Part shown: piece after piece, positions 21,973 to 60,877 of the stretch | How positions within the stretch are numbered: the first letter of the stretch is position 1 | How the letters are laid out: every line of letters starts with the position of its first letter | From: a virus | Virus record (IMG/VR): IMGVR_UViG_3300020182_000010 | Location: 64,001-128,000 of that record | Reading direction: 5' to 3' (one strand) | DNA length: 64,000 nucleotides | The notes under the pieces: model-generated | Seen by the model: the letters and a program-made list of their open reading frames with translations, nothing else | What the model was told of the DNA's origin: nothing | Databases searched by the model: none | Program-made: the position numbers and the translations under genes

Positions 21973-22001
21973 TTTATACAGTGATTCGTTTAGAATGTCA
22001 A
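21973..22001 (-). promoter_or_regulatory. Early promoter TTGACA-N17-TATAAA with CGAATCA (GANTC) in spacer
   Basis: TGATTCG at 21982-21988 (+). Confidence 0.85.
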
Positions 22002-22009
22002 GCTTTTTA

Positions 22010-22291
22010 TTACGCTGCAGATAACATTTCTGCAGGAACTTTCCAATTCATATATCCCACTTTAACATGAATATAACGACGGTTTACTTTACTGATAACT
22101 CCAGTCTCGACCATATTACTGCGAGTGTTAGTAAATTTAACATTATCGCCAATAACAAATGAACGCACTTTTTGATTGGCTAAGAATCTACCCTGTAATT
22201 GAAGACGGTTATTTACTTCACGACATTGATCGAAATCTGCTTTGCCCAAAAGTGCAAGAACTGTTTCCATTTCAGATGTTGATAGTTTCAT
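22010..22291 (-). CDS. Early hypothetical protein (SH3-like C-terminus)
   Basis: FVIGDNVKF..TGVISKVNRRYIHVK..WKVP. Confidence 0.7.
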   Translation of the reverse strand: MKLSTSEMETVLALLGKADFDQCREVNNRLQLQGRFLANQKVRSFVIGDNVKFTNTRSNMVETGVISKVNRRYIHVKVGYMNWKVPAEMLSAA

Positions 22292-22325
22292 AATAATTCT
22301 CTCTGCTGTTTCAATCTATACTTAC

Positions 22326-22354
22326 TTTATATAGTGATTCGTTCAGAATGTCAA
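22326..22354 (-). promoter_or_regulatory. Early promoter with GANTC in spacer
   Basis: TTGACA-N17-TATAAA; TGATTCG at 22335-22341; leader nearly identical to the 21955-22001 copy. Confidence 0.85.
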
Positions 22355-22377
22355 GTATTAATTAAGTTAATATAATA

Positions 22378-22887
22378 TTATATTATATTTTTCTCTCTTT
22401 TTAAATCAAACGGTGTTATTTCCAAATTACTTAATTCAGAAAGAAAAGAACATTCAGTTTGATTATTTAATTTCCATCCAGTTGGACAAATAAATCTACC
22501 AGTTCTTTTTGTATTATATATAAATGCTTTAAAATTTTTATTAATAGATGTTGAATTATAATCTATCTTTTTTGTGCCCTGAAGTGGATTACCAAATAAT
22601 GGTTTCCAATTTCTGGCCTTGCCGTTTGTAGTTGTTGTAAACTTGTTATATTCATAATCAATTAAATATAACTCACTTTGATCACCTACATTTGCATCTG
22701 CCATTGTGTGAAGAAATAATTCAGATGTATGTTGCAATTCATCATCATTTGGCCACTCATACATAGTTGCCAACATTTCCGCATGCTTATACGAAATTGT
22801 TTCCAATGCTAAATTAGTAGTGAGATATCGTTCAAGTATAGAAGCCACTGTAATAGAATATATGAAATCTGGAACTTTATTAGACAT
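22378..22887 (-). CDS. Hypothetical protein
   Basis: ORF in operon. Confidence 0.65.
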   Translation of the reverse strand: MSNKVPDFIYSITVASILERYLTTNLALETISYKHAEMLATMYEWPNDDELQHTSELFLHTMADANVGDQSELYLIDYEYNKFTTTTNGKARNWKPLFGNPLQGTKKIDYNSTSINKNFKAFIYNTKRTGRFICPTGWKLNNQTECSFLSELSNLEITPFDLKREKNII

Positions 22888-22898
22888 GTTTGTACTTT

Positions 22899-23237
22899 CT
22901 AATCATACTGATCCAATAAATGTGTTTTATCCTCAGTATATCCTTTGGCAGGATTAATTTCATCTGCGCCATTTAATGGTTCTTTTTGGTCTACAATTAC
23001 TTCCCATTTCTCAGACCATTTTGCATTAATATCATATAATCGTTGTGTGAATAACGGATCGGTATCTGCTATAATTGCATCTGCTGGACATTCGGGTTCA
23101 CAAACACCACAATCTATACATTCATCTGGATTGATTACCAGCATTTCTTCACCTTCGTAGAAACAGTCCACTGGACATACTTCTACACAGTCAGTGTACT
23201 TGCATTTAATGCAATCCTGTGTTACTACGTATGTCAT
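22899..23237 (-). CDS. fdxA: 7Fe ferredoxin FdxA
   Basis: [47 protein letters not shown]. Confidence 0.93.
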
Positions 23238-23440
23238 TGTTGTTCACCGTTAATAATATCATCTAATGCACTAATTATCACAGTGTGATGTAAGATACCA
23301 TCGCCCCATGTTTCGCAATGTTTTTTTCCCGCAGCATCAGCAAGTTCTTTATTACTATATACTCCAAGAAATTTATTAATACTGGAATTATTATTTTTAT
23401 TATATGTATGAACTACATAGATATTTGTGGTTATATTCAT
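23234..23440 (-). CDS. Hypothetical protein (start re-assigned)
   Basis: AGGAAAGAG before ATG; [11 protein letters not shown] motif. Confidence 0.6.
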
Positions 23441-23483
23441 CTCTTTCCTATCTTCTCTACTACATCGTAGTATATAATTATTG

Positions 23484-23708
23484 TTACGTACTTTTATCAA
23501 GCATCCATAATTTACTACAATAATAACATGCTGCCCATGGTTTACTATATGTTACATTGATAGAAAATAATGGATGGTCATTGTTATCACAGTATCCACT
23601 CCATTCGTCTGTTAATAGTACTTTTTCTTTTTTTTCTATCAAGTCTGCCTGTCTTATATTTTTCTGTTCTTGTTCTACTTGACTCAGATTAAATCTTTTT
23701 TTTCGCAT
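23484..23708 (-). CDS. Small zinc-finger (CHCC-like) protein
   Basis: C....HP.....CYYC. Confidence 0.6.
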   Translation of the reverse strand: MRKKRFNLSQVEQEQKNIRQADLIEKKEKVLLTDEWSGYCDNNDHPLFSINVTYSKPWAACYYCSKLWMLDKST

Positions 23709-23709
23709 T

Positions 23710-24093
23710 TTACTCTAAACTTCCGTCTTCTCTCATTTGTTTTCTAATTTTAGTGGCACTAATATCATGCATTTCTTTTCCTAAGTCGTGTTCAGTAAAA
23801 GTGTAGCCTACTCCACGTCCATAACTAATATCTACAATATTAGGTACGAGTAATATTACATAATCATGTTCTCTTTTAAATCCTTGTTTGCCTAATTCTA
23901 AACTAATTTTAAACACAATATTTTCAAAATCAAAAGGGTTATCATCTTGTGTTGCTGTGCGTCCAGCACCTGCGTCCTCACCAATAATACCGCCAACATC
24001 ACGTACCATTATGGCAACTTGTCCAGTTTCTTTGTAAGCACGTTTGAATAATTCAGTATGACCATCATGCCAAGGTTGCCATCTTCCTAGCAT
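23710..24093 (-). CDS. HIGH-family nucleotidyltransferase (cytidylyltransferase/ATP-sulfurylase-like)
   Basis: GRWQPWHDGH and ISATKIR; true start may lie about 10 codons upstream. Confidence 0.8.
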   Translation of the reverse strand: MLGRWQPWHDGHTELFKRAYKETGQVAIMVRDVGGIIGEDAGAGRTATQDDNPFDFENIVFKISLELGKQGFKREHDYVILLVPNIVDISYGRGVGYTFTEHDLGKEMHDISATKIRKQMREDGSLE

Positions 24094-24115
24094 TTGTGCT
24101 GTAGGTTTTTTGTAA

Positions 24116-24541
24116 TCAAATATTATTAATACCCATCCACCGTTGTACTACTGGCATAAGTTGCTGATGTGCATCGTTAAACCATTTCTCAATATGGTAG
24201 TCAACATCTTCAGGAGTTTCGAATAGTTTATTTGTGTCTTCAAATCGTCCTTCTTTGATAGTATCCATCCACACTGTAAAGTCAGCATCAAACTCTAATC
24301 TAGTTATGTAAGTAGGACACACAAAGTCAACAACTGCTACCTTGCCCGCCATGACTACTCCATCTGCTAAATGACGCATACGTTGCGCATGCCTTACACG
24401 CCCTTTTTTAGTAAAGTCCCAATCATCATACTTAGTACGCACCTCGTCTGCATTAATATGTACGCCATCTATTAGTTTAGCAAACGGTTTTGCAAGTGTG
24501 GTTTTGCCACTGCCAGGTAAACCAAATATTAATATTTTCAT
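24116..24541 (-). CDS. Adenylyl-sulfate (APS) kinase-like P-loop kinase
   Basis: GLPGSGKTT, NADEVR..DWDFT..GR, FVCPT, FETPE. Confidence 0.75.
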   Translation of the reverse strand: MKILIFGLPGSGKTTLAKPFAKLIDGVHINADEVRTKYDDWDFTKKGRVRHAQRMRHLADGVVMAGKVAVVDFVCPTYITRLEFDADFTVWMDTIKEGRFEDTNKLFETPEDVDYHIEKWFNDAHQQLMPVVQRWMGINNI

Positions 24542-24682
24542 AGATTTGATTCCTTCACAATATTCTCTTTAGAGCATATATACATATTACAGCAATTATT
24601 TATCAATGTCAAGCAAAATTAGTTGTATTTATAATAGCATAAATATATACATATCAAAAGTCTCACAGCAGAAAGAAAAACC

Positions 24683-25309
24683 ATGATACAGTATATTCAT
24701 CAATATGGCGATCAAGTAGCACTACAATCAAATCTAAACTGTGATCATTTGTTACAAGAATTAAGTCAGTTTGATGATGAATGGTCACAATATAATGTAT
24801 TAAAACCAACAATTAGACGACAAGGATTATGCGTATTAAATGAACGAGGAAATGTTGGGCCTGGCCCTGCACTTAATTCTCTTAGAGAATGGAATAAAAA
24901 ATACAATACTACTTTTTCTGAATCTGATTTTAATAAGCCTACCGAAGTATATAATAATAGTTTACAACTACAATCTATACTTGGAGAAATTCTTCCATAT
25001 TGTGTTAGAACCCATTTTTTAAGATTGGGACCAGGAGGATTTTTCCCACCACACCGAGATCATATTGGGAAAGAGCAATCTACATTTAGATTAATTGTTC
25101 CGATTAAGGCATTCAATCCACCAGATGCACGATTTATGATAGAAGATAGATCATTGTATTGGGAAGAGGGTAGAATGTATGCAGTAAACACAACCAAAGA
25201 ACACACATTGTTTAATGCTAGTAATCAAGATAGTATCTGGTTAGTAATTAATGCTAAAGTATGCGATGAAACTATTAGATTTGTGTCAAAAAATTTAAAA
25301 AGTAGATAA
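24683..25309 (+). CDS. Asp/Asn beta-hydroxylase-like 2OG-Fe(II) oxygenase
   Basis: GGFFPPHRD..RLIVP..NTTKEHTLFN. Confidence 0.8.
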   Translation: MIQYIHQYGDQVALQSNLNCDHLLQELSQFDDEWSQYNVLKPTIRRQGLCVLNERGNVGPGPALNSLREWNKKYNTTFSESDFNKPTEVYNNSLQLQSILGEILPYCVRTHFLRLGPGGFFPPHRDHIGKEQSTFRLIVPIKAFNPPDARFMIEDRSLYWEEGRMYAVNTTKEHTLFNASNQDSIWLVINAKVCDETIRFVSKNLKSR

Positions 25310-25804
25310 GTTAGATTGATGTAACTCATTAATTGTTTCTACATACGACATACTTATTACTATTCTGTTGTGTGGACTTTTAGAGTTATCTATCCTATGT
25401 GGAATGTCTACTCTCCAGCATTTTGGAGTTTGTAAATCTATAGTTTCTAAAACATTGTTACTTTCCATAGACTCCATATACTGAAATACACTAGTTTCAT
25501 GTACATTAACAGGAATATTAATTGCAGTGATCCGTTGTCTTATACCGCTTGCGTCTGCTTTATCATCAACGTGTGTTGCACATACACTATTTTTTGGTAC
25601 TGTAATAATTGCAGCATAACTAGGAGATATTGGCAGTGCATCAAAAATGTATGATAATTTGCTCATTTCCGATTGTGTCATAAGATGCGGTATTATTGTC
25701 CACGATGCATAAAGTGGGTTAGTTGGATTGTTACTTATATGAGTTATCCATTCTATATCGTCGGGACGAATAGATGGAACGTTTTTAATTTCAAACCATT
25801 TCAT
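25295..25804 (-). CDS. Putative 2OG-Fe(II)/cupin oxygenase
   Basis: HVD..AINIPV..VDIPHRIDN..RIVIS. Confidence 0.7.
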   Translation of the reverse strand: MKWFEIKNVPSIRPDDIEWITHISNNPTNPLYASWTIIPHLMTQSEMSKLSYIFDALPISPSYAAIITVPKNSVCATHVDDKADASGIRQRITAINIPVNVHETSVFQYMESMESNNVLETIDLQTPKCWRVDIPHRIDNSKSPHNRIVISMSYVETINELHQSNLSTF

Positions 25805-26283
25805 TTTTGTATCCTTTGTATATCTCCAATAGCGTCTGGCTCTCGGGTATGAACTGTAATTGCTATTCGTGTATTAGTTAACTCAGTAATATTATGATAT
25901 GTACTTACTGTGATATTATGCCAAACATTGTTTGGAAAGATTTCTCTTTCAATTTCATTTAAATCATCATCATACCATACAGTATTAACATTTCCGCCTG
26001 TATTGATAATGTAATTGTAACAGTTTGTTCTGCCAAAGTCTTTATGTATAGGTAAGTCCTGTGTTATTAATTGGAATGATATATCTACATCATTATCAAA
26101 ATATGGTTGTAAAAACGATTTTATCTCTTGTGGCGCAGTATGCAATGAGTACTTAGGCACTACATTATTTGGAGGTTCTACTCCGCTAAAATCTCTCGGG
26201 ATTTTTCGTATTTCATCTTCTGTGAACTTATCGATGATATCATTTGGAATTTGTGGAATATTCGGACAGTAACGATATAACAT
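25801..26283 (-). CDS. Putative 2OG-Fe(II)/cupin oxygenase
   Basis: PIHKD..YNYII..TYHNI..RIAIT. Confidence 0.7.
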   Translation of the reverse strand: MLYRYCPNIPQIPNDIIDKFTEDEIRKIPRDFSGVEPPNNVVPKYSLHTAPQEIKSFLQPYFDNDVDISFQLITQDLPIHKDFGRTNCYNYIINTGGNVNTVWYDDDLNEIEREIFPNNVWHNITVSTYHNITELTNTRIAITVHTREPDAIGDIQRIQK

Positions 26284-26293
26284 TAATTTACCT

Positions 26294-26893
26294 TTATACT
26301 AAGTGTTGAGTAAGTTCTCTGAAAAACTTCCAATCTGTTTTTTTATTATTAAATTTGAAAATCATTATTGCTCTTTGATGCGATTGTGGCAGTGGATTAA
26401 AAACACTATGCCATTTTTGATTATTAAATAGAACTGGAGTATCAGTTAATGCAAATTCATATGCGTGTGCTAATTCTCCGCTACTATACGCTTCACTTTT
26501 TTTCATTTTCTCGCCTATCACTTCGTCTATAGGTTCCCAGAAACTAGTAGTAATTTGTTCATTGCATCCAAAGACAGGGATATTTATACTACATGGATAA
26601 TTAATATTATCAGGATGATTGTCTCTATGGATAGGAATAAATTGTTTACTTCTGCGTTGGTCATGAAAATATCCAATCCACACACGGTCTATTACCATAT
26701 ATTCGTGTAGTTCCTTTGGTATTAAATGAAGTGCGGAATCTGTCATCGGTTCACTATTTAAAAACACTTGTTTCTTTTCATCATAGTGCTTATGAAATAT
26801 ATGATTTGCGACAGTAGTATCAATATTCAACGGAACAACATAGTCACTAATACTGTATTGAGTGTTATGTGTAATTGATTTCATTAAATCCAA
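26294..26893 (-). CDS. Putative 2OG-Fe(II)/cupin oxygenase
   Basis: PIHRD..SINIPV..KWHSVFN..RAIM. Confidence 0.7.
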   Translation of the reverse strand: MDLMKSITHNTQYSISDYVVPLNIDTTVANHIFHKHYDEKKQVFLNSEPMTDSALHLIPKELHEYMVIDRVWIGYFHDQRRSKQFIPIHRDNHPDNINYPCSINIPVFGCNEQITTSFWEPIDEVIGEKMKKSEAYSSGELAHAYEFALTDTPVLFNNQKWHSVFNPLPQSHQRAIMIFKFNNKKTDWKFFRELTQHLV

Positions 26894-28653: not shown

Positions 28654-28722
28654 GAGGTAATTTATCCAAATTCTCTATCTCCATAGTAATTATATGTATT
28701 CAAAAAACTATATTCATATTTA

Positions 28723-32175: not shown

Positions 32176-32526
32176 TTATTTTCCTTTGTTTACAAAATTG
32201 TAAAACTGTTGTGCAGCTTCAAGAATTTGTTCTGTTCCTGGAACTTCTGGCATTTCTACCTTCGTTACAACTTCATCATGTTCTTTGCGAACTGATGTTT
32301 CGAACATACCATATTTTGCATAATAGTCCTGCCACATTTGTGATTGTGCCATTTCTAATACTTGAGTGCGAATTTCATAACCATTTTTATTAAAAGTTAC
32401 TTTAGGAAGTGAAGGAGGTGTCATTTTTTGAAATGCTTCTGTAAATGCCTCTGGTTTCATTCCGGTGTTTTTGTATAAATCGCTGAATTTTTCAGCCATC
32501 TCTGTCATTTGTTTCATATCGAACAT
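32176..32526 (-). CDS. Conserved phage hypothetical protein downstream of tmRNA
   Basis: NKNGYEIRTQVLEMA..ILEAAQQFYNFVN; AC-rich leader + AAAGGAGA. Confidence 0.75.
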   Translation of the reverse strand: MFDMKQMTEMAEKFSDLYKNTGMKPEAFTEAFQKMTPPSLPKVTFNKNGYEIRTQVLEMAQSQMWQDYYAKYGMFETSVRKEHDEVVTKVEMPEVPGTEQILEAAQQFYNFVNKGK

Positions 32527-32555
32527 ATTGTTCTCCTTTGTGTGTGTGTGTTGTG

Positions 32556-32820
32556 TAACTATTCTGTTGCTAGGTCAGTTACCAACCCCCACGTGCTTAA
32601 ATTAAGCCGCTAATGCCATTTCTGGCGCATAATTGTTATTTGCAATTATAAAGTTTATTCGCGGTAACGGCGCTTATATCCCGGTAACTCCATTCATCTA
32701 TCTTGTCAGTCGATCCTATTTCAGCCCCATAAGAAACACACTTATCTAAATGTGCTTATGGTGGAGCTGCGCGGTACTGCCCCACGGTCCTGTCCAATCA
32801 TCAAATCACTTCAACGTTAC
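32556..32820 (-). ncRNA. ssrA: Circularly permuted two-piece tmRNA (alphaproteobacterial type); outer ends approximate
   Basis: T-arm CGTGG-GGCAGTA-CCGCG + CAGCTCCACCA (CCA ends 32759) precede a 30-nt intervening hairpin and GGGGCTGAAATAGGATCGAC (starts 32728); G3-U pair; tag ORF 32643-32602 ANNNYAPEMALAA*. Confidence 0.93.
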
Positions 32821-32824
32821 ATTC

Positions 32825-32855
32825 TATTTATAACATATTTTGATAGTGTTGTCAA
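32825..32855 (-). promoter_or_regulatory. Overlapping sigma70 (TTGACA-N17-TATAAA) and late (TATAAATA) promoter of tmRNA
   Basis: Both motifs visible immediately upstream of the tmRNA. Confidence 0.65.
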
Positions 32856-33430
32856 GTGTTGAATTTATTTTTAATAATTTCAACTACTCTGTCAGATAGA
32901 ACTATCTCATAATGGTTTCTATCTACTTCTGCATATTCTATATCATTACGACAAGTCATACTTTTACGTGTGACAATGCCATCATTTTCACCTGATATCC
33001 ATGGTACATCGCCAACTGTTGTGACTACCTGAAGCCAATTACACGAAATATCAATATTACGACTACCTCTGATAAATCTACTATGTGTTGTAATGTCACT
33101 AAACATTTCATATCCAGAAAAGAATTTCATTGTTGCTCCCCAAACCGCAATCTCACTGCCATTAAATGGTGTTGCTAAACTAACAACATTTTTTATTGTA
33201 TCAAATTCACTTTGTAAATATGTTGCATATACACCACCAAGACTATGTGCTATTACAAAAAATTCATCATCTATATCATTCAAAGTTTTCATCATTATAG
33301 CAAGATTATCAACTGCCGCTGTATGTTTACTATAATTTAAATATATAGGATCTTTACAATCCAAAGATTTCTGAATGAAGGCGAAACTTCTTTCACTAGC
33401 AGTTGCCCCATGTATATACACTATTCTCAT
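32852..33430 (-). CDS. Alpha/beta hydrolase (esterase/lipase)
   Basis: YIHG, IAHSLGG, LATPFNGS, NDGIV, NHYE. Confidence 0.85.
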   Translation of the reverse strand: MRIVYIHGATASERSFAFIQKSLDCKDPIYLNYSKHTAAVDNLAIMMKTLNDIDDEFFVIAHSLGGVYATYLQSEFDTIKNVVSLATPFNGSEIAVWGATMKFFSGYEMFSDITTHSRFIRGSRNIDISCNWLQVVTTVGDVPWISGENDGIVTRKSMTCRNDIEYAEVDRNHYEIVLSDRVVEIIKNKFNT

Positions 33431-38662: not shown

Positions 38663-38870
38663 CTAACGTATCCTCAAATTTTTCTTCGATTGATTTAATG
38701 TGTTTGCATTTTTTAAACGCTGGACAATCACAAGTAAATCCGTTGGGTTTCATTTCGATATTATATATGCCGCCCTTGCTACCAGTTGCAGTCCATGTAG
38801 TTCCGAGTGCCCAATGATTTTTAGTATTAATCAGGTCACTGGGAAATATACGTGGCCCATACTTTGCCAT
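38649..38870 (-). CDS. SWIM zinc-finger protein
   Basis: GSKGGIY..FTCDCPAFKKCKHI. Confidence 0.8.
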   Translation of the reverse strand: MAKYGPRIFPSDLINTKNHWALGTTWTATGSKGGIYNIEMKPNGFTCDCPAFKKCKHIKSIEEKFEDTLDEFL

Positions 38871-39211
38871 TATACAGATTCAAATCCAAAGTTTGCTACA
38901 ACTGAACGATTACCATCAGCATCTTCAATAATATTTCCAACTGAAATACTAGACATTTTTCCAAACCGCTCAATCCGATCTTCTGGTCCAATATTTCCTA
39001 CTTCAAAAACATGATCCAGGCTATCAGCAATAATGTTTGCAACATGGGTATAACATTCATCGAATTTCATAGCAGCCGCTTTAAAATTTCCAAATGTTGC
39101 ATCTGCATACGCAGTTGCTTTTTCATGGCAATTCCAGCCCTCTTTATTAACCAGTTCTACTAGTTTTTCATCTAATTGAATTTGATAAACTTTAAAAACT
39201 TGTACTGACAT
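38870..39211 (-). CDS. Early hypothetical protein (YodL-like)
   Basis: KVYQI..SLDHVFEVGN..SISVGNII. Confidence 0.65.
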   Translation of the reverse strand: MSVQVFKVYQIQLDEKLVELVNKEGWNCHEKATAYADATFGNFKAAAMKFDECYTHVANIIADSLDHVFEVGNIGPEDRIERFGKMSSISVGNIIEDADGNRSVVANFGFESV

Positions 39212-39242: not shown

Positions 39243-39271
39243 TTTATATAGTGATTCGTTCCGTTTGTCAA
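39243..39271 (-). promoter_or_regulatory. Early promoter with GANTC in spacer
   Basis: TTGACA-N17-TATAAA; TGATTCG 39252-39258. Confidence 0.85.
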
Positions 39272-39274: not shown

Positions 39275-39649
39275 TTATTGCATGTGTGAACTAACAAAAT
39301 CTGGACCAAAAAATTCTGCACACATCACTTCTTCTGACGGGCGAGTTTTAGCATAGCGCAAGTGAATTTTAATAAAGTCTTCGGATGACGTTTCTGCGAA
39401 ATCTTTTTTCACACCTCGTCTGAACATCGCTTGCATAGCAGAGTTGAGCATTTCTTTTTGTTCTGCTGTGCATTCTTCTTTTATTGAAAGTGCATATGCG
39501 GCACAGCACAATTCTACGATATTTTTTACTTTGTTGATAGGACACATATAGAAATGACGCAAACCTGATTCTCGACTCTGACTTGCTTTGAAGATTGAGT
39601 TAACACGAATTTCTAGTTCACGCTCAGTCATATCATATACATTATACAT
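39275..39649 (-). CDS. Early hypothetical protein
   Basis: Own promoter and GAGAGGA RBS. Confidence 0.7.
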   Translation of the reverse strand: MYNVYDMTERELEIRVNSIFKASQSRESGLRHFYMCPINKVKNIVELCCAAYALSIKEECTAEQKEMLNSAMQAMFRRGVKKDFAETSSEDFIKIHLRYAKTRPSEEVMCAEFFGPDFVSSHMQ

Positions 39650-39678: not shown

Positions 39679-39707
39679 AATATAGAGCGATTCGTTAGTA
39701 TTGTCAA
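39679..39707 (-). promoter_or_regulatory. Early promoter with GANTC in spacer
   Basis: TTGACA-N17-TATATT; CGATTCG 39688-39694. Confidence 0.8.
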
Positions 39708-39712: not shown

Positions 39713-40165
39713 TTATGCTGATTTCTTTTCGTAAACTGCTTCGCCATTAGAGAACACACCAATTTGTTCCATTTCTCCAAAGTTTGCGTGAAACTTTTTG
39801 GCAATCTTGCTGACCCATGCTTCTGCTAGTGGATTAACATCATCACCATAGTAACCTTTTTTAGCAACAATCCAGACAGCCGCACACCCACAGTATTCAC
39901 TAACACCAAAATAAGCAAGTTGATTTTCAGCAATTGCTAATTCCTCACGGTCAACCCACTCTTCGCACTCTGACATAGATGGGAAAAGTTCTTTTACTTT
40001 CTCGACCATCCATTCTTTAAAGTGATCCCAATCATCACCGACGAGATATTCATCGAAATTATCAAAATCAACACAATTGTTTTCTTCATCCCATCCGTAA
40101 CCGTGCTCTGATACATCGTAGTACGCAACGATTGCGTCACGTGGTGTAGAAACTGAACGACCCAT
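39713..40165 (-). CDS. Early acidic hypothetical protein
   Basis: MGRSVS..GVSEYCG..FSNGEAVY. Confidence 0.75.
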   Translation of the reverse strand: MGRSVSTPRDAIVAYYDVSEHGYGWDEENNCVDFDNFDEYLVGDDWDHFKEWMVEKVKELFPSMSECEEWVDREELAIAENQLAYFGVSEYCGCAAVWIVAKKGYYGDDVNPLAEAWVSKIAKKFHANFGEMEQIGVFSNGEAVYEKKSA

Positions 40166-40197: not shown

Positions 40198-40226
40198 AAT
40201 GTAAAATGATTCGTTAGATTTGTCAA
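40198..40226 (-). promoter_or_regulatory. Early promoter with GANTC in spacer
   Basis: TTGACA-N17-TACATT; TGATTCG 40207-40213. Confidence 0.8.
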
Positions 40227-40381
40227 GCTATCTTTTTTAATTTTTCTAAGACTTCCCACATTTCTACCAATACAGGATGAGTTTTTCCTTCGAGACCTGG
40301 CATGTTATCGTAAACCAAGTCATGTACTTCGCCCAACTTTTCTTCGACCACTTCCATTATTTCTTCTTTAGTAAGAGTCAT
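40223..40381 (-). CDS. Small early protein (52 aa), not in ORF track
   Basis: MTLTKEEIMEVVEEKLG..; own promoter and AAAGGGA RBS. Confidence 0.7.
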   Translation of the reverse strand: MTLTKEEIMEVVEEKLGEVHDLVYDNMPGLEGKTHPVLVEMWEVLEKLKKIA

Positions 40382-40410: not shown

Positions 40411-40439
40411 AATGTAAAATGATTCGTTAGATTTGTCAA
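40411..40439 (-). promoter_or_regulatory. Early promoter with GANTC in spacer (identical to the 40198-40226 copy)
   Basis: TGATTCG 40420-40426. Confidence 0.8.
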
Positions 40440-40754: not shown

Positions 40755-41009
40755 CTAATTAGCAAAAAGTGGTTGCATTGTTTCGAAAACTTTATTGTAA
40801 GCATTTACTTCTGCTTCATAGTATTCATAAAAATCGGAATCATCAGCGAAGTGTGCGTGGTCACAATTATAACTAGCACAATGTTCATCCCAAACACGGT
40901 TCATTGCTTCCATACCTTCAAGCAAATCACCACGACCATAAGAAGTCATTACTGTTTTCGCATCTTCAAAGGTAGTATTGAACTGGTAAAAACTAGGAAT
41001 TCTAAACAT
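40755..41009 (-). CDS. Early hypothetical protein
   Basis: Own promoter and GGAGA RBS. Confidence 0.75.
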   Translation of the reverse strand: MFRIPSFYQFNTTFEDAKTVMTSYGRGDLLEGMEAMNRVWDEHCASYNCDHAHFADDSDFYEYYEAEVNAYNKVFETMQPLFAN

Positions 41010-41042: not shown

Positions 41043-41071
41043 TTTATATACTGATTCGTTTAGAATGTCAA
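41043..41071 (-). promoter_or_regulatory. Early promoter with GANTC in spacer
   Basis: TTGACA-N17-TATAAA; TGATTCG 41052-41058. Confidence 0.85.
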
Positions 41072-41078: not shown

Positions 41079-41903
41079 CTAAGAAAACATATTATTTAAA
41101 TTGCCGTCGAATATAAAATGACCTGTGTGGTCTAATTTAACTAATGGGTCAAGTAATATTTCACCGCCAATATTTTGCCAACGACGGCAAAATGCATAAT
41201 CTTCTGATAGATATCGTTTAGTATCAGGTTCCAAGTAAGTGTCAAAGAATAGATAAGTCCATTTAGCAAACTCTGGATCTAAATTTAAATCATTGTTAAA
41301 GTAAAGATCCGGATATTCTTTGACCATTTTCATAATAACTTCACGCTTGATTAACATGAAACCGGTTGCAGCATCTTTAAGTAATGCTAATCCATCAGTC
41401 ATTTGCATTCTTGGCGTATCTTCATCTAAATTATACTTGAAGTTAAGAGCATAATTTGATCCCACTGAATTTAATATGTCACTATCTATTGATGAATTGT
41501 TTTTAACTGCATTTTGTATTTTATTCCAATCCAATTCTTTCTTTGGATATGCACCAACGACAATATCTTTGTCATGCTGTAGCATATGTAAAATATCCAG
41601 TGCATCAAAATTTATATCTGCATCTATAAACATCATATGTGTTGCTGCAGGATTAGACATAAAGTATGCTACCATATGACATCTTGCACGTGATATCAAT
41701 GATTCATTTGCACTTGTGGTAAGAGAATAGGGGATTCCATACTTAGTGAACATCATATGTGCACGTGACCAAGACCGAAAAAAAGGTTCAGTTACCTGTC
41801 CACCATAACATGGAGTACAGTAATGCACATGTGTTTTTTTAATGAAGTCTAAATCAATTTCTTTTCTAAATTGCTGGCAGTGCTCTAATGCGCTATTATT
41901 CAA
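41079..41903 (-). CDS. GT-A fold glycosyltransferase-like protein (TTG start)
   Basis: TPCYGG, ESLISRAR, FIDADI (DxD), ATGFMLIKR, LSEDYAFC. Confidence 0.8.
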   Translation of the reverse strand: MNNSALEHCQQFRKEIDLDFIKKTHVHYCTPCYGGQVTEPFFRSWSRAHMMFTKYGIPYSLTTSANESLISRARCHMVAYFMSNPAATHMMFIDADINFDALDILHMLQHDKDIVVGAYPKKELDWNKIQNAVKNNSSIDSDILNSVGSNYALNFKYNLDEDTPRMQMTDGLALLKDAATGFMLIKREVIMKMVKEYPDLYFNNDLNLDPEFAKWTYLFFDTYLEPDTKRYLSEDYAFCRRWQNIGGEILLDPLVKLDHTGHFIFDGNLNNMFS

Positions 41904-41938: not shown

Positions 41939-41967
41939 ATTATATACGATTCTACAGTAGATGTCAA
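41939..41967 (-). promoter_or_regulatory. sigma70 promoter TTGACA-N17-TATAAT with CGATTCT
   Basis: GANTC at 41948-41952. Confidence 0.65.
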
Positions 41968-48861: not shown

Positions 48862-49140
48862 TTAACTTGTATACATCTTACGATATGCTTCGATATCTTT
48901 CTCATACTGCTTCGAACAGAAGTTAGATTGACGTTTCCAAAAATTCATCTTACGCTCACATATGTCTAACTCTTTAGATGCATGATGCTTTTCAACTGTA
49001 TCGTCACTTTTTAGAAGTATGAATTTCAGGAAGAAGTAATTTTCAAGATGCTTACAAATCATGTGATTTGCATCGTATTTTTCTGCATTAAATGCAGAAG
49101 CGAATGTACGCTTTTCAGTATCGCTATAAAAAAACATCAT
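48862..49140 (-). CDS. Early hypothetical protein (start re-assigned)
   Basis: AAAGGAGA RBS; own promoter; flanked by direct repeats. Confidence 0.75.
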   Translation of the reverse strand: MMFFYSDTEKRTFASAFNAEKYDANHMICKHLENYFFLKFILLKSDDTVEKHHASKELDICERKMNFWKRQSNFCSKQYEKDIEAYRKMYTS

Positions 49141-49170: not shown

Positions 49171-49199
49171 TTTATAGCATTGATTCGAGGATTTGTCAA
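49171..49199 (-). promoter_or_regulatory. Early promoter with GANTC in spacer
   Basis: TTGACA-N17-TATAAA; TGATTCG 49181-49187. Confidence 0.8.
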
Positions 49200-50033: not shown

Positions 50034-51146
50034 TTATGACCTCTTTGCTCGGCCTAATGGTTCACTATCTGGTCCAGATGCTGCTTCGTCACCTGCTGCA
50101 AAATCTACATCGTCTTCAAAATCATCAGACATATCACCACCGATTATATCACCTGAAGACATGTCATCTGATGGTTTTTCGCCATTAAGAACCAAAACTG
50201 CATCATTTACTGTATCTTTTGTTGCACGTGCCTGCCCTAGTAAACTTGCTACGGCATCGTTTACTTTATCTTTAAATGATGATGCTTGGTCTGCGCCATG
50301 TGAGTAAGCCATTTCATCAGTAAGTGGACCAAGTTGATCATTTTGTAGTTTGCCTAGTTTTTCAATCATGTCTTGTAGTTCATCTACCATGCCACGTGCT
50401 GCCATCATAACTTCTGCTTCTGCTGCATCACTTTCAAGTAATGTATTAAGTTGTGCTAGAAGGCCTTCTTCTAATTTTTCTCTATCCATTTTGTATTCCT
50501 TTGGTGCTTCGTAAGTATTGCCATACTTTTTCATTGTATCAAATGATGGTTTTTCGCTCTCAGTTGCTTTTTCTGCTTTTGCAGCATGTACTGCTTTGCG
50601 TTGTGCATCAGATTTATACTTACCTTCATTGATTGATTCGTAGTACTCATTTGCCATTTCTTTGCCGTACTTTTTAGAAAATTCTTCTTTTGACATTGTT
50701 TCTGAATCATCAATAATCATATCACTCATGCGGCCTTCAACAAATGATTCATTCTTTAAGAATGCTGGCTTATCATCTTTTGTGCCCATCTTGCCGTCTT
50801 TACCAGCAGCCATTGGCATTTTATCTGACTTTGCTTTACTCTTTTTAGTAGTCTTGCCTTTTTTCTTTGCATCTTGATATGCTTTCAGACCAGCGGGTAA
50901 TTCACCTTCAGCAACGTGTGCTTTTAGTAGTGATTTAATAGTTTCAATCATAAGCATGTTTTCGACATATGCACGATCCTGGTAGTCTGAAGTCATTTCT
51001 CGCTTTTTTGCTTCTAGTTGTGCTTTTGCTTCTCTTAGTGATTCTAGATCACCATCTACTTCGTACCCAAAATTACTTTTCATGTACTCATTCATTTTTG
51101 AAGAGATAGCAACCGGGTTAGAGTTGTAAAAAATTGTTTTTCTCAT
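50034..51146 (-). CDS. Putative prohead core/scaffold-like protein
   Basis: Helical and acidic, many xxE-S/G sites; late promoter 51179-51187. Confidence 0.55.
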   Translation of the reverse strand: MRKTIFYNSNPVAISSKMNEYMKSNFGYEVDGDLESLREAKAQLEAKKREMTSDYQDRAYVENMLMIETIKSLLKAHVAEGELPAGLKAYQDAKKKGKTTKKSKAKSDKMPMAAGKDGKMGTKDDKPAFLKNESFVEGRMSDMIIDDSETMSKEEFSKKYGKEMANEYYESINEGKYKSDAQRKAVHAAKAEKATESEKPSFDTMKKYGNTYEAPKEYKMDREKLEEGLLAQLNTLLESDAAEAEVMMAARGMVDELQDMIEKLGKLQNDQLGPLTDEMAYSHGADQASSFKDKVNDAVASLLGQARATKDTVNDAVLVLNGEKPSDDMSSGDIIGGDMSDDFEDDVDFAAGDEAASGPDSEPLGRAKRS

Positions 51147-54108: not shown

Positions 54109-54187
54109 TTTATTTCTCCATTAAAATTTGTTGAGACTTTATCATCTCTATACTTTTATTTATCATTTTTGTTCCAACAATTGTATG

Positions 54188-55039: not shown

Positions 55040-55042
55040 GCT

Positions 55043-55237: not shown

Positions 55238-55241
55238 TATA

Positions 55242-57296: not shown

Positions 57297-57511
57297 TTCT
57301 TATCTCCAAATGGATTTTCACCTGTTAATTGAGGTCTTGAAAACCATAATTTAAACCAAGCATCAGTTCCAGGCTCAATATCATTCTTTTTTTGATACTC
57401 ACCTTTTTCTTGTCCAGTATGAGATATATTTTCCTGATGTTGTGATACATCATAGGGCTTATATATACCTGCTAAAACCTTCAGTTGATGTAACTGCTGT
57501 TCAAAGTCCAT
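57293..57511 (-). CDS. Conserved phage hypothetical protein
   Basis: LKVLAGI..IEPGTDAWFKLWFSRPQLTGE. Confidence 0.75.
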   Translation of the reverse strand: MDFEQQLHQLKVLAGIYKPYDVSQHQENISHTGQEKGEYQKKNDIEPGTDAWFKLWFSRPQLTGENPFGDKK

Positions 57512-57747
57512 TATTTGTCTACACTATTCATGCCTCGCTTAAACTTCCGCGGGTCTTTTGTGCGGATACTATTAACCAAACGTTTTTGTAAATCATGTGA
57601 AGTTTCTTCATCAAAAGTATTTTCAATGAATTCCATTAGGTGTATTGCACCTGCAATCAAGTGTTCACCTTTTTGTTCAACCAAACGTTTGTTATCTTTA
57701 TCATAAGACATGCTGTTTAGTTCTTCAAATAGACTTTTACGTTTCAT
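57511..57747 (-). CDS. Conserved phage hypothetical protein
   Basis: RLVNSIRTKDPRKFKRG; late promoter 57766-57774. Confidence 0.75.
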   Translation of the reverse strand: MKRKSLFEELNSMSYDKDNKRLVEQKGEHLIAGAIHLMEFIENTFDEETSHDLQKRLVNSIRTKDPRKFKRGMNSVDK

Positions 57748-57772
57748 AACAATCCTCCGTTAAGTGTATTTA

Positions 57773-59191
57773 TCAAGTTTCGTCAAAAGCCGATCTAGTT
57801 TTAGTTTTCAACATTGCACGGAGAGAACTCGCTGCCTGTGTTTTTTCGAAAACAGGAGTATCATCATCTGACTTATTTAGAGTTGTTTTCTTTCTAAGTT
57901 GATCAACAACACTAGAGGGGGCACCGCTATTGCTTGGTGTGCCTGCACCAGTGCTATCTTGGTCTGGATCATCTGATATACGTAAACTGTCTCTATCAAA
58001 TAATAAACTTACTTTACTGCCGACACCAGATGATGAACGTGTTTTTAATAGTTGTAATTGATATTGTCCACGTTCACGCATAGCATTCGATGTAAAAATA
58101 CCAATCACATTATCAGCAGTTTGAATTTTACTAATGCCACCAGCAATATGAGAATGATCAAATTCAATTTCTTCAACTGCACTACGATTTAATTGTGATG
58201 CAGTTACAGTAACAGTCTGTGTTTCCATAGAAAAGTTACGCATTTCTTCTGTAACATATTTGTCTTTGGTAAAGGTGTCACCTGCTTGTACTTTTTTAGT
58301 TGCCGGCATTAACAAATCTAGATAGTCAATGCACATGCAATCTACTGTTTTGCCAGTTTGTATCTGAAGTTCTTTCAAGTAAGACCGTAGATCATTGATT
58401 GTTGAACCACTCGGAAGATACTTTATACGTAGCATACCGGACTGTTTGCCTTTCGCTTTAACTTGTAGTTCAACATCATCTAAGTCTTTAAAAATGCGTC
58501 TAGTACTGCGGTCCGTCTGCATTGCATACATACGCATACTTGAAAGTTCCTCGGATAACTCCAATGTGAAGTAGACACAATTCAACCCAGCCTCCGCCCA
58601 ATTCAGGCTCATATTTTGCATAAAAAGGGATTTACCTGCTCCGGAGCCACCTGCAAAAATCGTAATCTCCCCACGATTAATGCCACCATATAGCTTATCA
58701 TCAAGAGATTTCCAACCAGTGGTAATCTGACCATTGTTGTCTTTCATCCGTTCAAGCACACCTCTGGGATCAGCAAAATAATCTGTTCCCAAACTACGTG
58801 CCAGTCCAATTTGAACAGCCTCTTTGATTCTAAGTTCTACTTCACCATACTTGCCAGTCTCAAGTAAATCTGTGCTATCGATAATAGCCTTCTCAATAGC
58901 CTTGTGACGGCAAAATGTCTCAAACTCATCCACAAACCATTCTTCGTGCTGGGTTATGTTTTCCAACTTCTCAATGTCTTGTCCTGTTTCTGCTTTAATA
59001 ATTGCAGGATCTGGTAGTGTAGAATAGTCTTCACTATAATCAATAAGTTGTTTGACCACAGGACGGACACTGCGGTCGAAATATTCAGGCTTGATAATCC
59101 CTCTGATCCTAGTATATAGTTCAGGATTAGTCACCATGAATTGAATGAATAGTTTTTGTAAGTCTGGGCTATAATTTTTTACTTCTGACAT
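57773..59191 (-). CDS. Replicative DnaB-like helicase (T4 gp41-like)
   Basis: GGSGAGKS, TLELSE, IDYLDL, TASQLNR, KTR. Confidence 0.93.
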   Translation of the reverse strand: MSEVKNYSPDLQKLFIQFMVTNPELYTRIRGIIKPEYFDRSVRPVVKQLIDYSEDYSTLPDPAIIKAETGQDIEKLENITQHEEWFVDEFETFCRHKAIEKAIIDSTDLLETGKYGEVELRIKEAVQIGLARSLGTDYFADPRGVLERMKDNNGQITTGWKSLDDKLYGGINRGEITIFAGGSGAGKSLFMQNMSLNWAEAGLNCVYFTLELSEELSSMRMYAMQTDRSTRRIFKDLDDVELQVKAKGKQSGMLRIKYLPSGSTINDLRSYLKELQIQTGKTVDCMCIDYLDLLMPATKKVQAGDTFTKDKYVTEEMRNFSMETQTVTVTASQLNRSAVEEIEFDHSHIAGGISKIQTADNVIGIFTSNAMRERGQYQLQLLKTRSSSGVGSKVSLLFDRDSLRISDDPDQDSTGAGTPSNSGAPSSVVDQLRKKTTLNKSDDDTPVFEKTQAASSLRAMLKTKTRSAFDET

Positions 59192-59231
59192 TTGTATAGT
59201 ATATCATTTCTATGTGTAAAGGTCAACACTT

Positions 59232-60098
59232 TTAGTCAAACAGTGCTGGATTTAAATTGTTTTCTTCTTTCTTGCGTAATCGGTCTCTCTTCCATCCTTC
59301 GCGCTGCTTTTCTCGTTTTGCAAGTTCTTCTGCAGATGGTGAGATAGGCTCTGGATCAGGGACTACTTCAACTTCGTCCAATGTTGGCAAGAAAGCATCA
59401 TATGCATTCTTATTCATTTCAAATCCAACAAATTTTCTACCATATCGCAATGCAGTTCTAGGTGTAGTGAAGCCGCCACAGAATGGATCCATTACTACAT
59501 CGCCACGGTTACTACTATACAATATAAACTTTTCAATCCAATCTTCATTTAGTTGGTTCTTGTTTTTAATTTGTCCCGGCTTATGGCTACGTGGCATTGT
59601 TTGAACTGTCAGACGATCATGATAACTATCTTTACTATCTGTATAATAAGCATTAGTATTAAATGTGCGCTTTTGTTTGCTTGTTTCTGGCTTTGACCAA
59701 AACAATACATGATAGTGACTACTTACAAATTTGTTTTTTGTTGATACACCAAAACTATATTGTGCAATAATATGATTAATTTCTTTTAAGTCTGTTGAGT
59801 GCAATGCATTAAGTATATGATGCAAATTTGTATATCCACTGACAATATACATACTACCGCCTGGTCGTAAAACCCTTGCACATTCTGTAATCCATTGCCT
59901 AGAAAAATCACCGTATGTTTCTAATGGAACTTCTACATAGCCAGGAACTACGTTGCCTTCGTCACGATTATAATGTGCGTCAAGTTTATCACCCTCAATA
60001 CCATAAGGAGGATCAGTAAATATCAAATCTACTGTTCCATCTTCTATATGCTCATTGATGCCGCTAGTACAATCTTGATTATAAACTGTATGATTCAT
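59232..60098 (-). CDS. Beta-class N6-A/N4-C DNA methyltransferase
   Basis: DLIFTDPPY (motif IV) precedes VMDPFCGG (motif I). Confidence 0.9.
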   Translation of the reverse strand: MNHTVYNQDCTSGINEHIEDGTVDLIFTDPPYGIEGDKLDAHYNRDEGNVVPGYVEVPLETYGDFSRQWITECARVLRPGGSMYIVSGYTNLHHILNALHSTDLKEINHIIAQYSFGVSTKNKFVSSHYHVLFWSKPETSKQKRTFNTNAYYTDSKDSYHDRLTVQTMPRSHKPGQIKNKNQLNEDWIEKFILYSSNRGDVVMDPFCGGFTTPRTALRYGRKFVGFEMNKNAYDAFLPTLDEVEVVPDPEPISPSAEELAKREKQREGWKRDRLRKKEENNLNPALFD

Positions 60099-60145
60099 TT
60101 ACTCTCCTTAACATTTGATAATTATACTATAAATCAAATAAAATA

Positions 60146-60730
60146 TCAAGCATTTTGTATACTTTGTTTCACAGATTCAATTACCGCGCGTTGTGCTTTA
60201 CGTTTTTCATCTTTGTAATTAACTTCAACTAGTTGTGTATTTGAAATATCTTCTGGTCTAAAAATAAACTCCAATGCATCAAATGGAATGTGTGCTTCAA
60301 TGCCGTCAGATACTCCAACCAAATATGGTTTAACATCTTCAGCACTGATGATTGCAATTGCGTTCTGTTGTCCAAGCATATAAAAATCTGCAGGATTTTC
60401 AATTGTTGTGCCTTTGTTTTCACCTAAACTATTTTTTAGTTTTACTTTGACTGTCTTTTTTTGATTATTGCGTTTAGTAAACATACCATCTGTCATATAT
60501 TTAAATTCTATATCTAAATTTTCTATGATATCTCTATGGTCTCTACCGATATCATCAACCCAAACCAGCCGCCCGTCTGTTGCTGCTTCAACTGTTTGTT
60601 CAATTATATCTGCCTTATCAAATCTATCTTTGCGGTCGTTCAACTGTGATCCCAAACTATATACAACCGAACTATATACTTGTGAATTAATTACTGATTT
60701 TAATTGAGTAGCATATGTAGAAGTTTTCAT
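60146..60730 (-). CDS. PD-(D/E)xK nuclease-like protein (restriction endonuclease-like); start uncertain
   Basis: E..VE..DDIGRDH..DIEFK; the ORF-track TTG start coincides with the promoter -35 box. Confidence 0.5.
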   Translation of the reverse strand: MKTSTYATQLKSVINSQVYSSVVYSLGSQLNDRKDRFDKADIIEQTVEAATDGRLVWVDDIGRDHRDIIENLDIEFKYMTDGMFTKRNNQKKTVKVKLKNSLGENKGTTIENPADFYMLGQQNAIAIISAEDVKPYLVGVSDGIEAHIPFDALEFIFRPEDISNTQLVEVNYKDEKRKAQRAVIESVKQSIQNA

Positions 60731-60848
60731 TATCGTGTTTCCTAATATTTCAAAATGTCCCCAATAGTCTTCTGGTTCTATCTGAGTTTCGTCAAGATTG
60801 TTAAGAATATCCAACAAATCATCTCTCTGTTTATTAGCGTATACGTTC

Positions 60849-60877
60849 TTTATATAATGATTCTTATTGCTTGTCAA
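60849..60877 (-). promoter_or_regulatory. Early promoter TTGACA-N17-TATAAA with TGATTCT
   Basis: GANTC at the same offset as in the other early promoters (60858-60864). Confidence 0.75.

Follow-up and report, generated by a model that had tools for sequence, protein, structure and literature searches.

A GANTC-containing spacer box in the sigma70-type promoters of a marine phage clade, probably a binding site for host GcrA

Promoters and genes of the window

The window is a 64,000-nt stretch of the 155-kb record G000 of an uncultured marine jumbo phage. The sigma70-type promoters of this phage and its relatives consist of TTGACA, a 16- or 17-nt spacer and hexamers resembling TATAAA, TATATT or TATAAT. 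Ten promoters of the window contain a GANTC motif (the box) in their spacer and are listed below with the genes behind them and with two box-less promoters; orthologues are those of the relatives used for comparison, namely G001 (92%-complete), G002 (complete) and G005.

21973..22001, minus strand: class-A promoter TTGACA-N7-CGAATCA-N3-TATAAA of a 128-aa ORFan (21554-21940)
22326..22354, minus strand: class-A promoter with CGAATCA, of a 93-aa ORF (22010-22291); box kept in the G001 orthologue
32552..32859, minus strand: two-piece (permuted) alpha-type tmRNA gene, tag ANNNYAPEMALAA
32827-32855, minus strand: class-B promoter of the tmRNA, without box
39243..39271, minus strand: class-A promoter with CGAATCA, of a 113-aa ORFan (38870-39211); the G002 orthologue has AGAATCG
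39679..39707, minus strand: class-A promoter with CGAATCG and -10 TATATT, of a 124-aa ORFan (39275-39649)
40198..40226, minus strand: class-A promoter with CGAATCA and -10 TACATT, of a 150-aa ORFan (39713-40165); the G005 orthologue has CGAATCG
40411..40439, minus strand: class-A promoter with CGAATCA and -10 TACATT, of a 52-aa ORF (40223-40381); box kept in the G001 orthologue
41043..41071, minus strand: class-A promoter with CGAATCA, of an 84-aa ORFan (40755-41009)
41939..41967, minus strand: variant promoter TTGACA-N8-AGAATCG-N2-TATAAT (box shifted 1 nt) of a 274-aa phrog_1574 protein (41079-41903)
49171..49199, minus strand: class-A promoter TTGACA-N6-CGAATCA-N4-TATAAA of a 92-aa ORFan (48862-49140)
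59198..59226, minus strand: class-B promoter of a DnaB-like helicase, TTGACC-N17 with TGn and TATACT, without GANTC
59232..60098, minus strand: beta-class DPPY amino-methyltransferase, 288 aa, PF01555
60146..60817, minus strand: 223-aa ORF, the first gene downstream of the 60877 promoter, with no match in Pfam, PHROG or NCBIfam
60849..60877, minus strand: class-A promoter with the variant AGAATCA (TGATTCT), of the 223-aa ORF and the methyltransferase

All ten GANTC-bearing promoters were found at the + strand coordinates given in an earlier note on this DNA, and their single orientation was confirmed: all ten are minus-strand promoters, so that TGATTCG reads as CGAATCA in promoter sense. On the + strand, the 7-mer is TGATTCG in seven cases, CGATTCG in one (39688), CGATTCT at 41947 and TGATTCT at 60858. 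The spacer measures 17 nt in 10/10, and the box starts 7 nt after TTGACA except at 49181 (6 nt) and 41947 (8 nt), which gives the general form TTGACA-N6/8-(C/A)GAATC(A/G)-N3/4-TATAAA-like for the ten minus-strand promoters of the window. The box of the 49171..49199 promoter is thus shifted 1 nt in the opposite way to that of the 41939..41967 promoter. Because orthologues of the 274-aa phrog_1574 gene in G001, G002 and G005 lack a box, the one at 41939..41967 may be lineage-specific or due to chance.

Behind the box promoters lie mostly small ORFans, 31-274 aa in length (with one exception of 418 aa), whose leaders measure 15-29 nt (with one exception of 81 nt). Because of this small size and these short leaders, the box-driven genes are, as judged from gene content, probably early. 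The absence of the box from the tmRNA and helicase promoters, as described earlier, was upheld; the 11.4-kb gene mentioned alongside them was not recovered, since the window has no such ORF (the largest ORF is 731 aa in the window, and 6.7 kb in the record, outside the window), and no promoter of a primase was located. The second sigma70 class carries TGn, and TGATAAATA is likely a late motif of this phage.

Conservation and position of the box

A search of the window with TTGACA-N6-9-GAATC-N3-5-TANNNW yielded 12 matches, corresponding to the ten distinct minus-strand promoters, one overlapping duplicate and a + strand match at 50690 that is probably spurious, while 100 dinucleotide shuffles gave an expectation of 0.06 +/- 0.24. 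The whole record contains 23 box-bearing promoters, and roughly half of the phage's host-type promoters have the box at a constant position. An unbiased count of 8-mers upstream of ORFs, made over the whole record, ranked CGAATCAC first (11.6-fold), above the -35 words, and 17 of the 21 gene-strand copies of CGAATCA in the record fall within promoter spacers.

The box promoters recur across a clade of ~342-kb marine phages at 17-24 per genome, always with the box on the gene strand, and a reversed control pattern gave no matches in the clade genomes scanned. Orthologous genes with 39-57% protein identity still share the box, whereas their spacers have fully diverged in the 5' half. Extended flanks are common to several promoters of the record (e.g. 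TATAAAGTAAGTATAGATTG), as would be expected if a single promoter cassette had recently been duplicated. However, all 23 sites of the record are distinct 75-mers, two subfamilies with differing downstream sequence have only the box in common, and the box is retained at orthologous promoters of deeply diverged genomes. Recent duplication, which the earlier note had named as a possible explanation of the conservation, is excluded by the orthologues and the distinct 75-mers; chance is refuted by the shuffles (10 sites found versus 0.06), and we regard either origin as extremely improbable.

With either a 16- or a 17-nt spacer, GAATC ends 4 nt before the -10 hexamer, and thus spans -21..-17 with its centre at -19 (reckoned with the -10 hexamer at -12..-7). 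Among the 68 boxes of G000, G001 and G002, the centre base is always A or T (65 GAATC, 3 GATTC, no GAGTC and no GACTC), and the flanks vary only by C>A on the 5' side and A>G on the 3' side.

GcrA is a cofactor of Alphaproteobacteria that binds domain 2 of sigma70 and reads CcrM-methylated GANTC sites of the YGAKTCK type. Read on the template strand, YGAKTCK (the Caulobacter GcrA set) fits 66 of these 68 boxes, and the flank variation equals the degeneracy that the GcrA motif has at K and Y. The commonest box, CGAATCA, is TGATTCG on the other strand, i.e. the top GcrA consensus: MEME gives TGATTCG as the consensus for the GcrA sites of Caulobacter (PMC4647560), and the 7-mer is contained in the DNA of the GcrA-DBD crystal (PMC5887438). 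GcrA boxes have their centre in the spacer, at -20 +/- 1 or -30 +/- 2, or else within +5..+30 (PMC9976885), and the phage box, by its sequence-derived position, falls into the first of these ranges. The nontemplate strand of the cryo-EM GcrA-RNAP scaffold reads TTGACA-N6-CGAATCC-N4-TATAAT (PMC9976885); strand and distance from -35 equal those of the 16-nt phage form, and the scaffold box lies 1 bp further from -10.

Several observations count against a GcrA reading. The phage box is 1 bp nearer to -10 than in the solved complex, and its A/T-only centre is narrower than GcrA's K (G/T), although the genomes are AT-rich. The -35 and -10 elements are near-perfect, so that an activator is perhaps unnecessary. 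Moreover, a search with an E. coli-like promoter pattern did not find the box promoter type in Atu_ph07, HTVC008M, Cr30, phiM12 and phiCbK, which are cultured phages of Alphaproteobacteria, and a published scan of alphaproteobacterial phages revealed no GcrA-site signal (PMC9437464). Some selection bias also attaches to the match, since the motif had been picked for its likeness to a known one.

The anchoring of the box to -10 rather than -35 would also suit an intrinsic element that RNA polymerase holoenzyme reads unaided by cofactor or methylation, through a sigma or beta-prime zipper contact with the spacer (~-17 to -22) or through DNA shape, thereby raising promoter strength. In G000, an extended -10 (TGn) occurs in 1/21 box-bearing versus 7/13 box-less promoters, as if the box could replace a polymerase contact; box and TGn nevertheless occur together in G001 and G002. 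The spacer contacts known so far have little sequence specificity, but the box has 5-7 near-invariant bp, which hold more information than the -10. In two G005 promoters TGATTCG is flipped and lies 4 nt further upstream, which suits a tethered protein domain better than a polymerase contact of fixed position. As an intrinsic element would also leave the GcrA-site identity and the genome-wide GANTC depletion (see below) unexplained, we consider it distinctly improbable.

Any site-specific factor could account for the fixed position, the strand bias and the confinement to a single promoter class. The box could thus be an operator for a transcription factor that the phage encodes or the virion delivers, acting as activator of the class or as a repressor closing it at the early-to-middle switch, with the likeness to GcrA sites being coincidental. 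Small proteins without annotation number in the hundreds in this phage, and the box is missing from the related cultured alphaproteobacterial phages. However, no candidate was identified, and the match to the GcrA top consensus, its degeneracy and its position would all be chance. The box is, moreover, unchanged across lineages whose early proteins share 39-57% identity, which a slow-evolving host reader fits better than a phage protein that evolves fast; we therefore find a phage factor unlikely.

Host class, GANTC usage and the methyltransferase

The phage host is probably an alphaproteobacterium, as suggested by three independent signals: an alpha-type tmRNA, a tRNA-His with A73 and without G-1 in one relative, and strong genome-wide GANTC depletion. 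The tmRNA scored 126 bits with Rfam alpha_tmRNA RF01849 (gathering score 50) and 113 bits with RF04321; a permuted tmRNA was detected by ARAGORN in all four lineages (G000, G001, G002 and G005), and its combination of T-loop and permutation pattern matches almost only Alphaproteobacteria among GTDB genomes. A close relative of the tmRNA and an identical tag were both looked for and not found, which counts against the GcrA reading. The tRNA-His of G001 combines A73 with a missing G-1 and a D-loop of 9 nt, traits shared with the RRCH/SAR11 alphaproteobacterial type (PMC3064791, PMC3937112); its U1.G72 in place of the G1.U72 identity pair also counts against the GcrA reading. GcrA is encoded in three of the five low-GC or small alphaproteobacterial genomes examined (G259, G064 and G093).

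Among interrupted 5-mer palindromes, GANTC ranks first or second for depletion in the first three phage genomes tested (O/E 0.63-0.86, z down to -11.8) and third in G005 (O/E 0.79); its density in G000 is higher in non-coding DNA. Alphaproteobacterial genomes share this pattern of depletion and non-coding occurrence (PMC3973325).

No GcrA homologue was found in the phage, either by Pfam at E <= 1 or among 11,080 ORF segments (full-sensitivity hmmsearch, best E 0.6), and the search for gcrA and ccrM that had been suggested for the rest of the genome, extended to the two (near-)complete relatives, revealed neither a phage gcrA nor a CcrM orthologue. The methyltransferase at 59232-60098 matches PF01555 (E 1.7e-33) and has a beta-class fold with its DPPY aligned to that of CcrM. 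Its identification as CcrM was rejected: it scored 98 bits with NF050803 (equivalog cut-off 830) and 97 bits with PRK11524, has 288 aa versus ~366, lacks the C-terminal DNA-binding domain and aligns to 6PBD only over residues 15-250. It is similar to the catalytic domain of CcrM but no orthologue of this enzyme.

The location of this methyltransferase behind a box-bearing promoter would fit a methylation-sensitive switch operating without GcrA, in which a phage or host methyltransferase marks the site and the mark, or another reader, separates parental from new DNA or shields the site from restriction. GANTC is also less depleted in the genomes with the methyltransferase (O/E 0.86 and 0.79) than in those without it (0.63 and 0.66), a comparison of two genomes versus two. 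Nevertheless, the enzyme is accessory, being absent from complete G002 and 92%-complete G001, which both keep their boxes, and its low CcrM score and missing C-terminal domain also argue against such a switch, which we deem highly improbable. The GcrA/CcrM reading of the earlier note held in part: all features open to a sequence test, namely 7-mer, position, strand and alphaproteobacterial signals, fit it, and GcrA dependence, m6A marks brought from the previous host, early timing and cell-cycle coupling are its presumed parts.

Proposed mechanism and comparison with known systems

We propose that the conserved 7-mer is probably the binding box of host GcrA, and infer an alphaproteobacterial host with GcrA and CcrM, in which GcrA reads the promoters of early genes. 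The box would be built into one class of near-consensus sigma70 promoters, on the face and at the -10 distance where the DNA-binding domain of GcrA would dock, with sigma held by the other GcrA domain. Host RNA polymerase carrying GcrA would prefer these promoters for binding and opening, and would thus express mostly small, probably early genes. The promoter adenines would be methylated, in most clade members by host CcrM, and the box promoters may be coupled to the cell cycle.

It is conceivable, albeit doubtful, that early transcription in this widespread clade of marine jumbo phages is epigenetically gated, with only CcrM-methylated parental genomes being read efficiently by GcrA-loaded RNA polymerase. 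Box promoters would then be switched on at injection, lose activity with the build-up of under-methylated progeny DNA, and be active only in hosts or cell-cycle stages containing GcrA, which would amount to an early-to-middle switch and host-state sensor made wholly of host parts.

Dependence of promoters on Dam/GATC adenine methylation is known from enterobacterial Mu mom, P1 cre and the IS10 transposase, which can be likened to the phage box in that an N6-adenine methylation site lies in or beside a promoter with methylation-dependent transcription. Those are single promoters, at which methylation mostly blocks a repressor or changes polymerase affinity, whereas the phage has a whole promoter class whose GANTC box matches a dedicated methyl-reading sigma cofactor. 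Early promoters of the T4 type are numerous, dispersed, strong sigma70 promoters with extended conservation, located before small early ORFans and accompanied by separate middle and late classes. The phage resembles them in its dispersed strong sigma70 promoters before small ORFans, its second class with TGn and its likely late motif; however, T4 early promoters are not known to us to have a separate 7-bp element in the spacer that matches the site of a host cofactor.

We found no paper describing a GcrA-type box in phage promoters, and a prophage-like operon of Brevundimonas is GcrA-dependent (PMC7987155). Host CtrA boxes function in promoters of alphaproteobacterial phages, termed "lytic deferment" (PMC9437464); in phiCbK and vB_BsubS-Delta, they likewise furnish phage promoters with a site for a cell-cycle regulator of the host and tie expression to host state, but the regulator, the motif (TTAA-N7-TTAA) and the lineages differ from those of this clade. 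The closest known systems come from Caulobacter crescentus, namely those of its GcrA-activated, CcrM-methylated sigma70 promoters that have an upstream box, PcsM among them (PMC4647560, PMC5887438, PMC9976885). The phage promoters differ from these in lying on a phage genome rather than a chromosome, in their ~20 copies with near-consensus TTGACA/TATAAT, and in a box 1 bp nearer to -10 with only A or T at its centre. Both have a single GANTC box in the spacer, with the same TGATTCG 7-mer and the same nontemplate CGAATC strand, at 6-7 nt (phage) versus 6 nt (Caulobacter) from -35 and with the box centre at -19 versus -20 +/- 1 (PMC9976885).

Box-bearing promoters of the window and the source record

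The source record is a 155,152-bp IMG/VR phage of 35% G+C (42% complete according to CheckV), and almost all genes in the window are oriented on the minus strand. A sequence check placed all ten GANTC-containing promoters proposed in an earlier note exactly where they had been reported. Read in promoter sense, these conform to TTGACA-N7-CGAATCA-N3-TATAAA (the heptamer in the spacer being referred to as the box), with three departures among the ten:

49199, minus strand: promoter with the box 1 nt closer to the –35 hexamer
41967, minus strand: promoter with the box 1 nt farther from the –35 hexamer and reading AGAATCG
60877, minus strand: promoter with the box reading AGAATCA

The composite promoter pattern occurred at 10 distinct minus-strand places in the window against 0.06 expected from shuffles, while the whole record contained 23 box promoters, 23/23 of them on the gene strand. 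The sole plus-strand match in the window (50690-50719; TTGACATTGTTTCTGAATCATCAATAATCA) overlaps a minus-strand ORF and probably represents a false positive. A blind count over the record returned CGAATCAC as the top-ranked 8-mer upstream of ORFs. When the promoters were aligned on the box, its 7 bp C-G-A-A-T-C-(A/G) carried as much information as the –35 hexamer and more than the –10 hexamer. Moreover, two promoter subfamilies with the leaders GTAAGTATAG... and AATTAAGTAATCAG... have only the hexamers and the box in common, and of the 21 CGAATCA sequences on the gene strand of the record, 17 fall inside promoter spacers.

The genes behind the boxes are mostly small ORFans of 31–274 aa (with one exception of 418 aa), and are preceded by leaders of 15–29 nt, or 81 nt in one case. 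Scans of 10 downstream proteins against Pfam and PHROGs assigned a named function to none of them (one fell into PHROG 1574, whose function is unknown), so that these genes can be called early only presumptively.

The tmRNA and helicase promoters indeed lack the box, as had been claimed, and carry an extended –10 element (TGn) together with TTGACA or TTGACC, respectively. The tmRNA gene of the related genome G005 (around 131583, gene strand) has a box-bearing promoter (TTGACATTCCAAGACGAATCG...) whereas that of the window (32827-32855) is box-less, and promoter class is therefore not fixed per gene. In the TGn promoter of the helicase (window 59191-59226, minus strand), the –10 hexamer is followed at exactly 7 nt by the helicase ATG at 59191, and the mRNA may be leaderless or the real start codon may lie farther downstream. 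A third motif, TGATAAATA, has 22 sense-strand copies (its core GATAAATA occurs 22 times in sense versus 2 times in antisense) and is probably a late promoter. An 11.4-kb gene, also listed earlier as lacking the box, is present in neither the window nor the record. An ORF of 6.7 kb outside the window (G000:C1:148378-155097 of the record), which may be the giant gene that was meant, reaches to about 55 bases from the contig end and contains in its 5′ part at least 3 repeat copies at a spacing of 831–834 bp, each with TTGACAAGTGTTAGAAAGATCAATAGCTA.

Conservation of the box among related phages

With the helicase as query, over 80 related viral contigs were retrieved (74–99% identity), among them two 342-kb genomes, G002 (with terminal repeats, rated 100% complete) and G001 (rated 92%). 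The box was present in every lineage tested (17–24 copies in G001 and G002) and was matched in the most distant group as well, in these relatives without exception on the gene strand. With the pattern reversed as a control, the five records tested first gave 0 matches, and five fragments tested afterwards gave two, which were scattered. The position of the box is fixed relative to the –10 hexamer, with GAATC ending 4 nt ahead of it, and the spacer measures 17 nt where TGn is absent or 16 nt where it is present. Mutual exclusion of box and TGn, which is true in the record, was refuted clade-wide by the 16-nt promoters of G001 and G002, which have both.

In front of orthologues at 39–57% protein identity, TTGACA, the box and the –10 hexamer were kept while the 6–7 nt from the –35 hexamer to the box were wholly different. 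Since the box was retained as the adjoining spacer diverged, it is under purifying selection rather than recently copied, and the recent duplication that the earlier note had entertained is thereby ruled out. Together with the excess over shuffled sequence, this retention makes chance or duplication an extremely improbable origin of the pattern.

In G002 (gene-strand 80841, 169062 and 337735) and in G411, G414 and G415, some promoters have a further GANTC immediately behind the –35 hexamer (TTGACAGAATCA.GAATC), which precedes the main box by 7 bp. A regular second box near –30 was nevertheless rejected, as this arrangement is limited to 3/21 promoters of G002 and a small number in other contigs, with a centre near –26.

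Host class and methyltransferases

The window tmRNA is an Rfam alpha_tmRNA match, and 4/4 lineages examined have a permuted tmRNA whose tags conform to the alphaproteobacterial type AN(D/N)N..A.AA; nearly all matches to its T-loop and permutation pattern were in Alphaproteobacteria. The tags vary by lineage (ANNNYAPEMALAA, ANDNYQPEMAMAA, ANTNAAPAMAKLAA and ANENFAPVAYALAA; window gene 32511-32859, minus strand, and relatives). An exact search of GTDB genomes for the tag ANN(N)[FY]APEMALAA gave no match, and BLAST against 80 alphaproteobacterial loci and 401 sampled alphaproteobacterial genomes found no close tmRNA relative (best 77% over 82 nt). The tRNA-His of G001 (L243:11025-11100, minus strand) has A73, a T at –1 without an encoded G-1, a 9-nt D-loop, and U1.G72 instead of G1.U72; its stem could be 8 bp long if T(–1) paired with A73. 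A73, the lack of an encoded G-1 and the 9-nt D-loop are derived traits of the Rhodobacteraceae/Rhizobiales/Caulobacterales/Hyphomonadaceae clade and most SAR11 (PMC3064791, PMC3937112). The same genome (loci L237-L254) encodes 28 tRNAs (29 genes including tmRNA), one of which has a CTA anticodon (amber suppressor, labelled Pyl by ARAGORN; gene-strand 209371-209445), so that TAG codons might be read through or recoded in this lineage.

GANTC was the most depleted interrupted palindrome in the record and G001 and the second most depleted in G002, and it was about twice as dense outside as inside the ORFs of the record. The same pattern was described for CcrM-bearing Alphaproteobacteria by Gonzalez et al. 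(PMC3973325). Avoidance of 4-mer palindromes varies, with an O/E of 0.25 for AGCT in the record and for GATC in G002. GcrA is encoded in 3/5 small or low-GC alphaproteobacterial genomes sampled, and the box-promoter pattern gave too few matches to interpret in five alphaproteobacterial genomes. The helicase is equidistant from those of Pseudomonas, Agrobacterium and Sinorhizobium jumbo phages and is also carried by NCBI assembly GCA_028108065.1, and the ESM Atlas yielded nothing on the host for the phage PepA. The window further encodes ClpX (18242-19504) and an M17 aminopeptidase (12464-13870).

As to a phage-borne gcrA or ccrM, for which the rest of the genome was also checked, neither Pfam nor an unfiltered custom HMM search revealed, at that sensitivity, a gcrA in the record or five relatives, and a methyltransferase was present that is not CcrM. 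This beta-class DPPY enzyme, encoded behind the variant promoter at 60877, has CcrM as its closest solved relative, but was rejected as CcrM on scoring 98 bits against an equivalog cut-off of 830 and missing the C-terminal domain; no close phage relative of it was found. PF01555 enzymes are missing altogether from G001 and G002, whereas a G005 cluster (L215, L218; G005:C1:40473-46253) contains two beta-class enzymes and one of the Dam family (TIGR00571, 247 bits). The methyltransferases are therefore accessory in the clade rather than a conserved part of the system, so that in most members host CcrM would be responsible if the boxes are methylated. GANTC was less strongly depleted in the pair of genomes that carry a methyltransferase than in the pair that lack one, a hint from two versus two genomes. 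Some other methylation-based switch acting at the boxes appears improbable to us.

Candidate GcrA boxes and known systems

GcrA and CcrM are the textbook example of an epigenetic transcription module in Alphaproteobacteria, described to our knowledge for chromosomal genes only. Haakonsen et al. ranked all 32 NGANTCN classes and defined the GcrA site as TGATTCG, or more broadly YGAKTCK (PMC4647560), and TGATTCG is also the DNA in the GcrA-DBD crystal (PMC5887438). Read on the template strand, 66/68 phage boxes are YGAKTCK, with no flank variants beyond what the degenerate consensus permits. Spacer boxes of Caulobacter are centred at –20 ± 1 or –30 ± 2, as the DBD must occupy the face opposite the polymerase (PMC9976885); the phage box is centred at –19. 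The nontemplate strand of the GcrA cryo-EM scaffold reads TTGACA-N6-CGAATCC-N4-TATAAT (PMC9976885), to which the 16-nt phage form is identical in strand orientation and –35 distance, although the phage box lies one base pair nearer the –10 hexamer. Two G005 promoters have TGATTCG flipped and 4 nt farther upstream, an arrangement that a flexibly linked domain could tolerate.

Because box sequence and degeneracy, position, strand, sigma-2-side anchoring, invariance over deep divergence and host-class markers agree, we consider it somewhat probable, judging from sequence, that the conserved boxes are host GcrA boxes. Several points count against this reading: the core promoters are strong as they stand, the base at the centre of the box varies less than the GcrA motif would permit, and it was a familiar look that drew attention to the motif. 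Recognition of the box by a phage-specific factor is an unlikely alternative, and an element intrinsic to polymerase recognition is less likely still.

Also against host GcrA, nothing comparable is seen in cultured alphaproteobacterial phages, and a published scan of such phages for GcrA sites was negative (PMC9437464). The promoter type was absent from Atu_ph07, PA5oct, XaC1, Vibrio 2.275.O, HTVC008M, Cr30, phiM12 and phiCbK. Sinorhizobium phage Phosso (PV764938.1) gave 11 loose TTGAC...GANTC...TANNNT matches versus 0 for the reversed control, several with GATTCCTATGTTA, and their GANTC positions and flanks are inconsistent; these may represent a distinct family of GANTC-containing promoters, here in a cultured jumbo phage of an alphaproteobacterium. 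No paper linking GcrA to phage promoters was found in the searched literature.

If host GcrA does read these boxes, this would be the first virus to exploit a methylation-reading sigma cofactor, with an optimal GcrA box in about 20 promoters, and the box would provide a promoter-encoded host-class marker for uncultured phages. Since members of the clade abound in metagenomes from coasts and estuaries, the mechanism could touch many natural infections. Precedents exist in a GcrA-dependent prophage-like operon (PMC7987155) and in the CtrA boxes of phiCbK-type phages (PMC9437464), beside which GcrA boxes would form a second phage route to alphaproteobacterial cell-cycle coupling.
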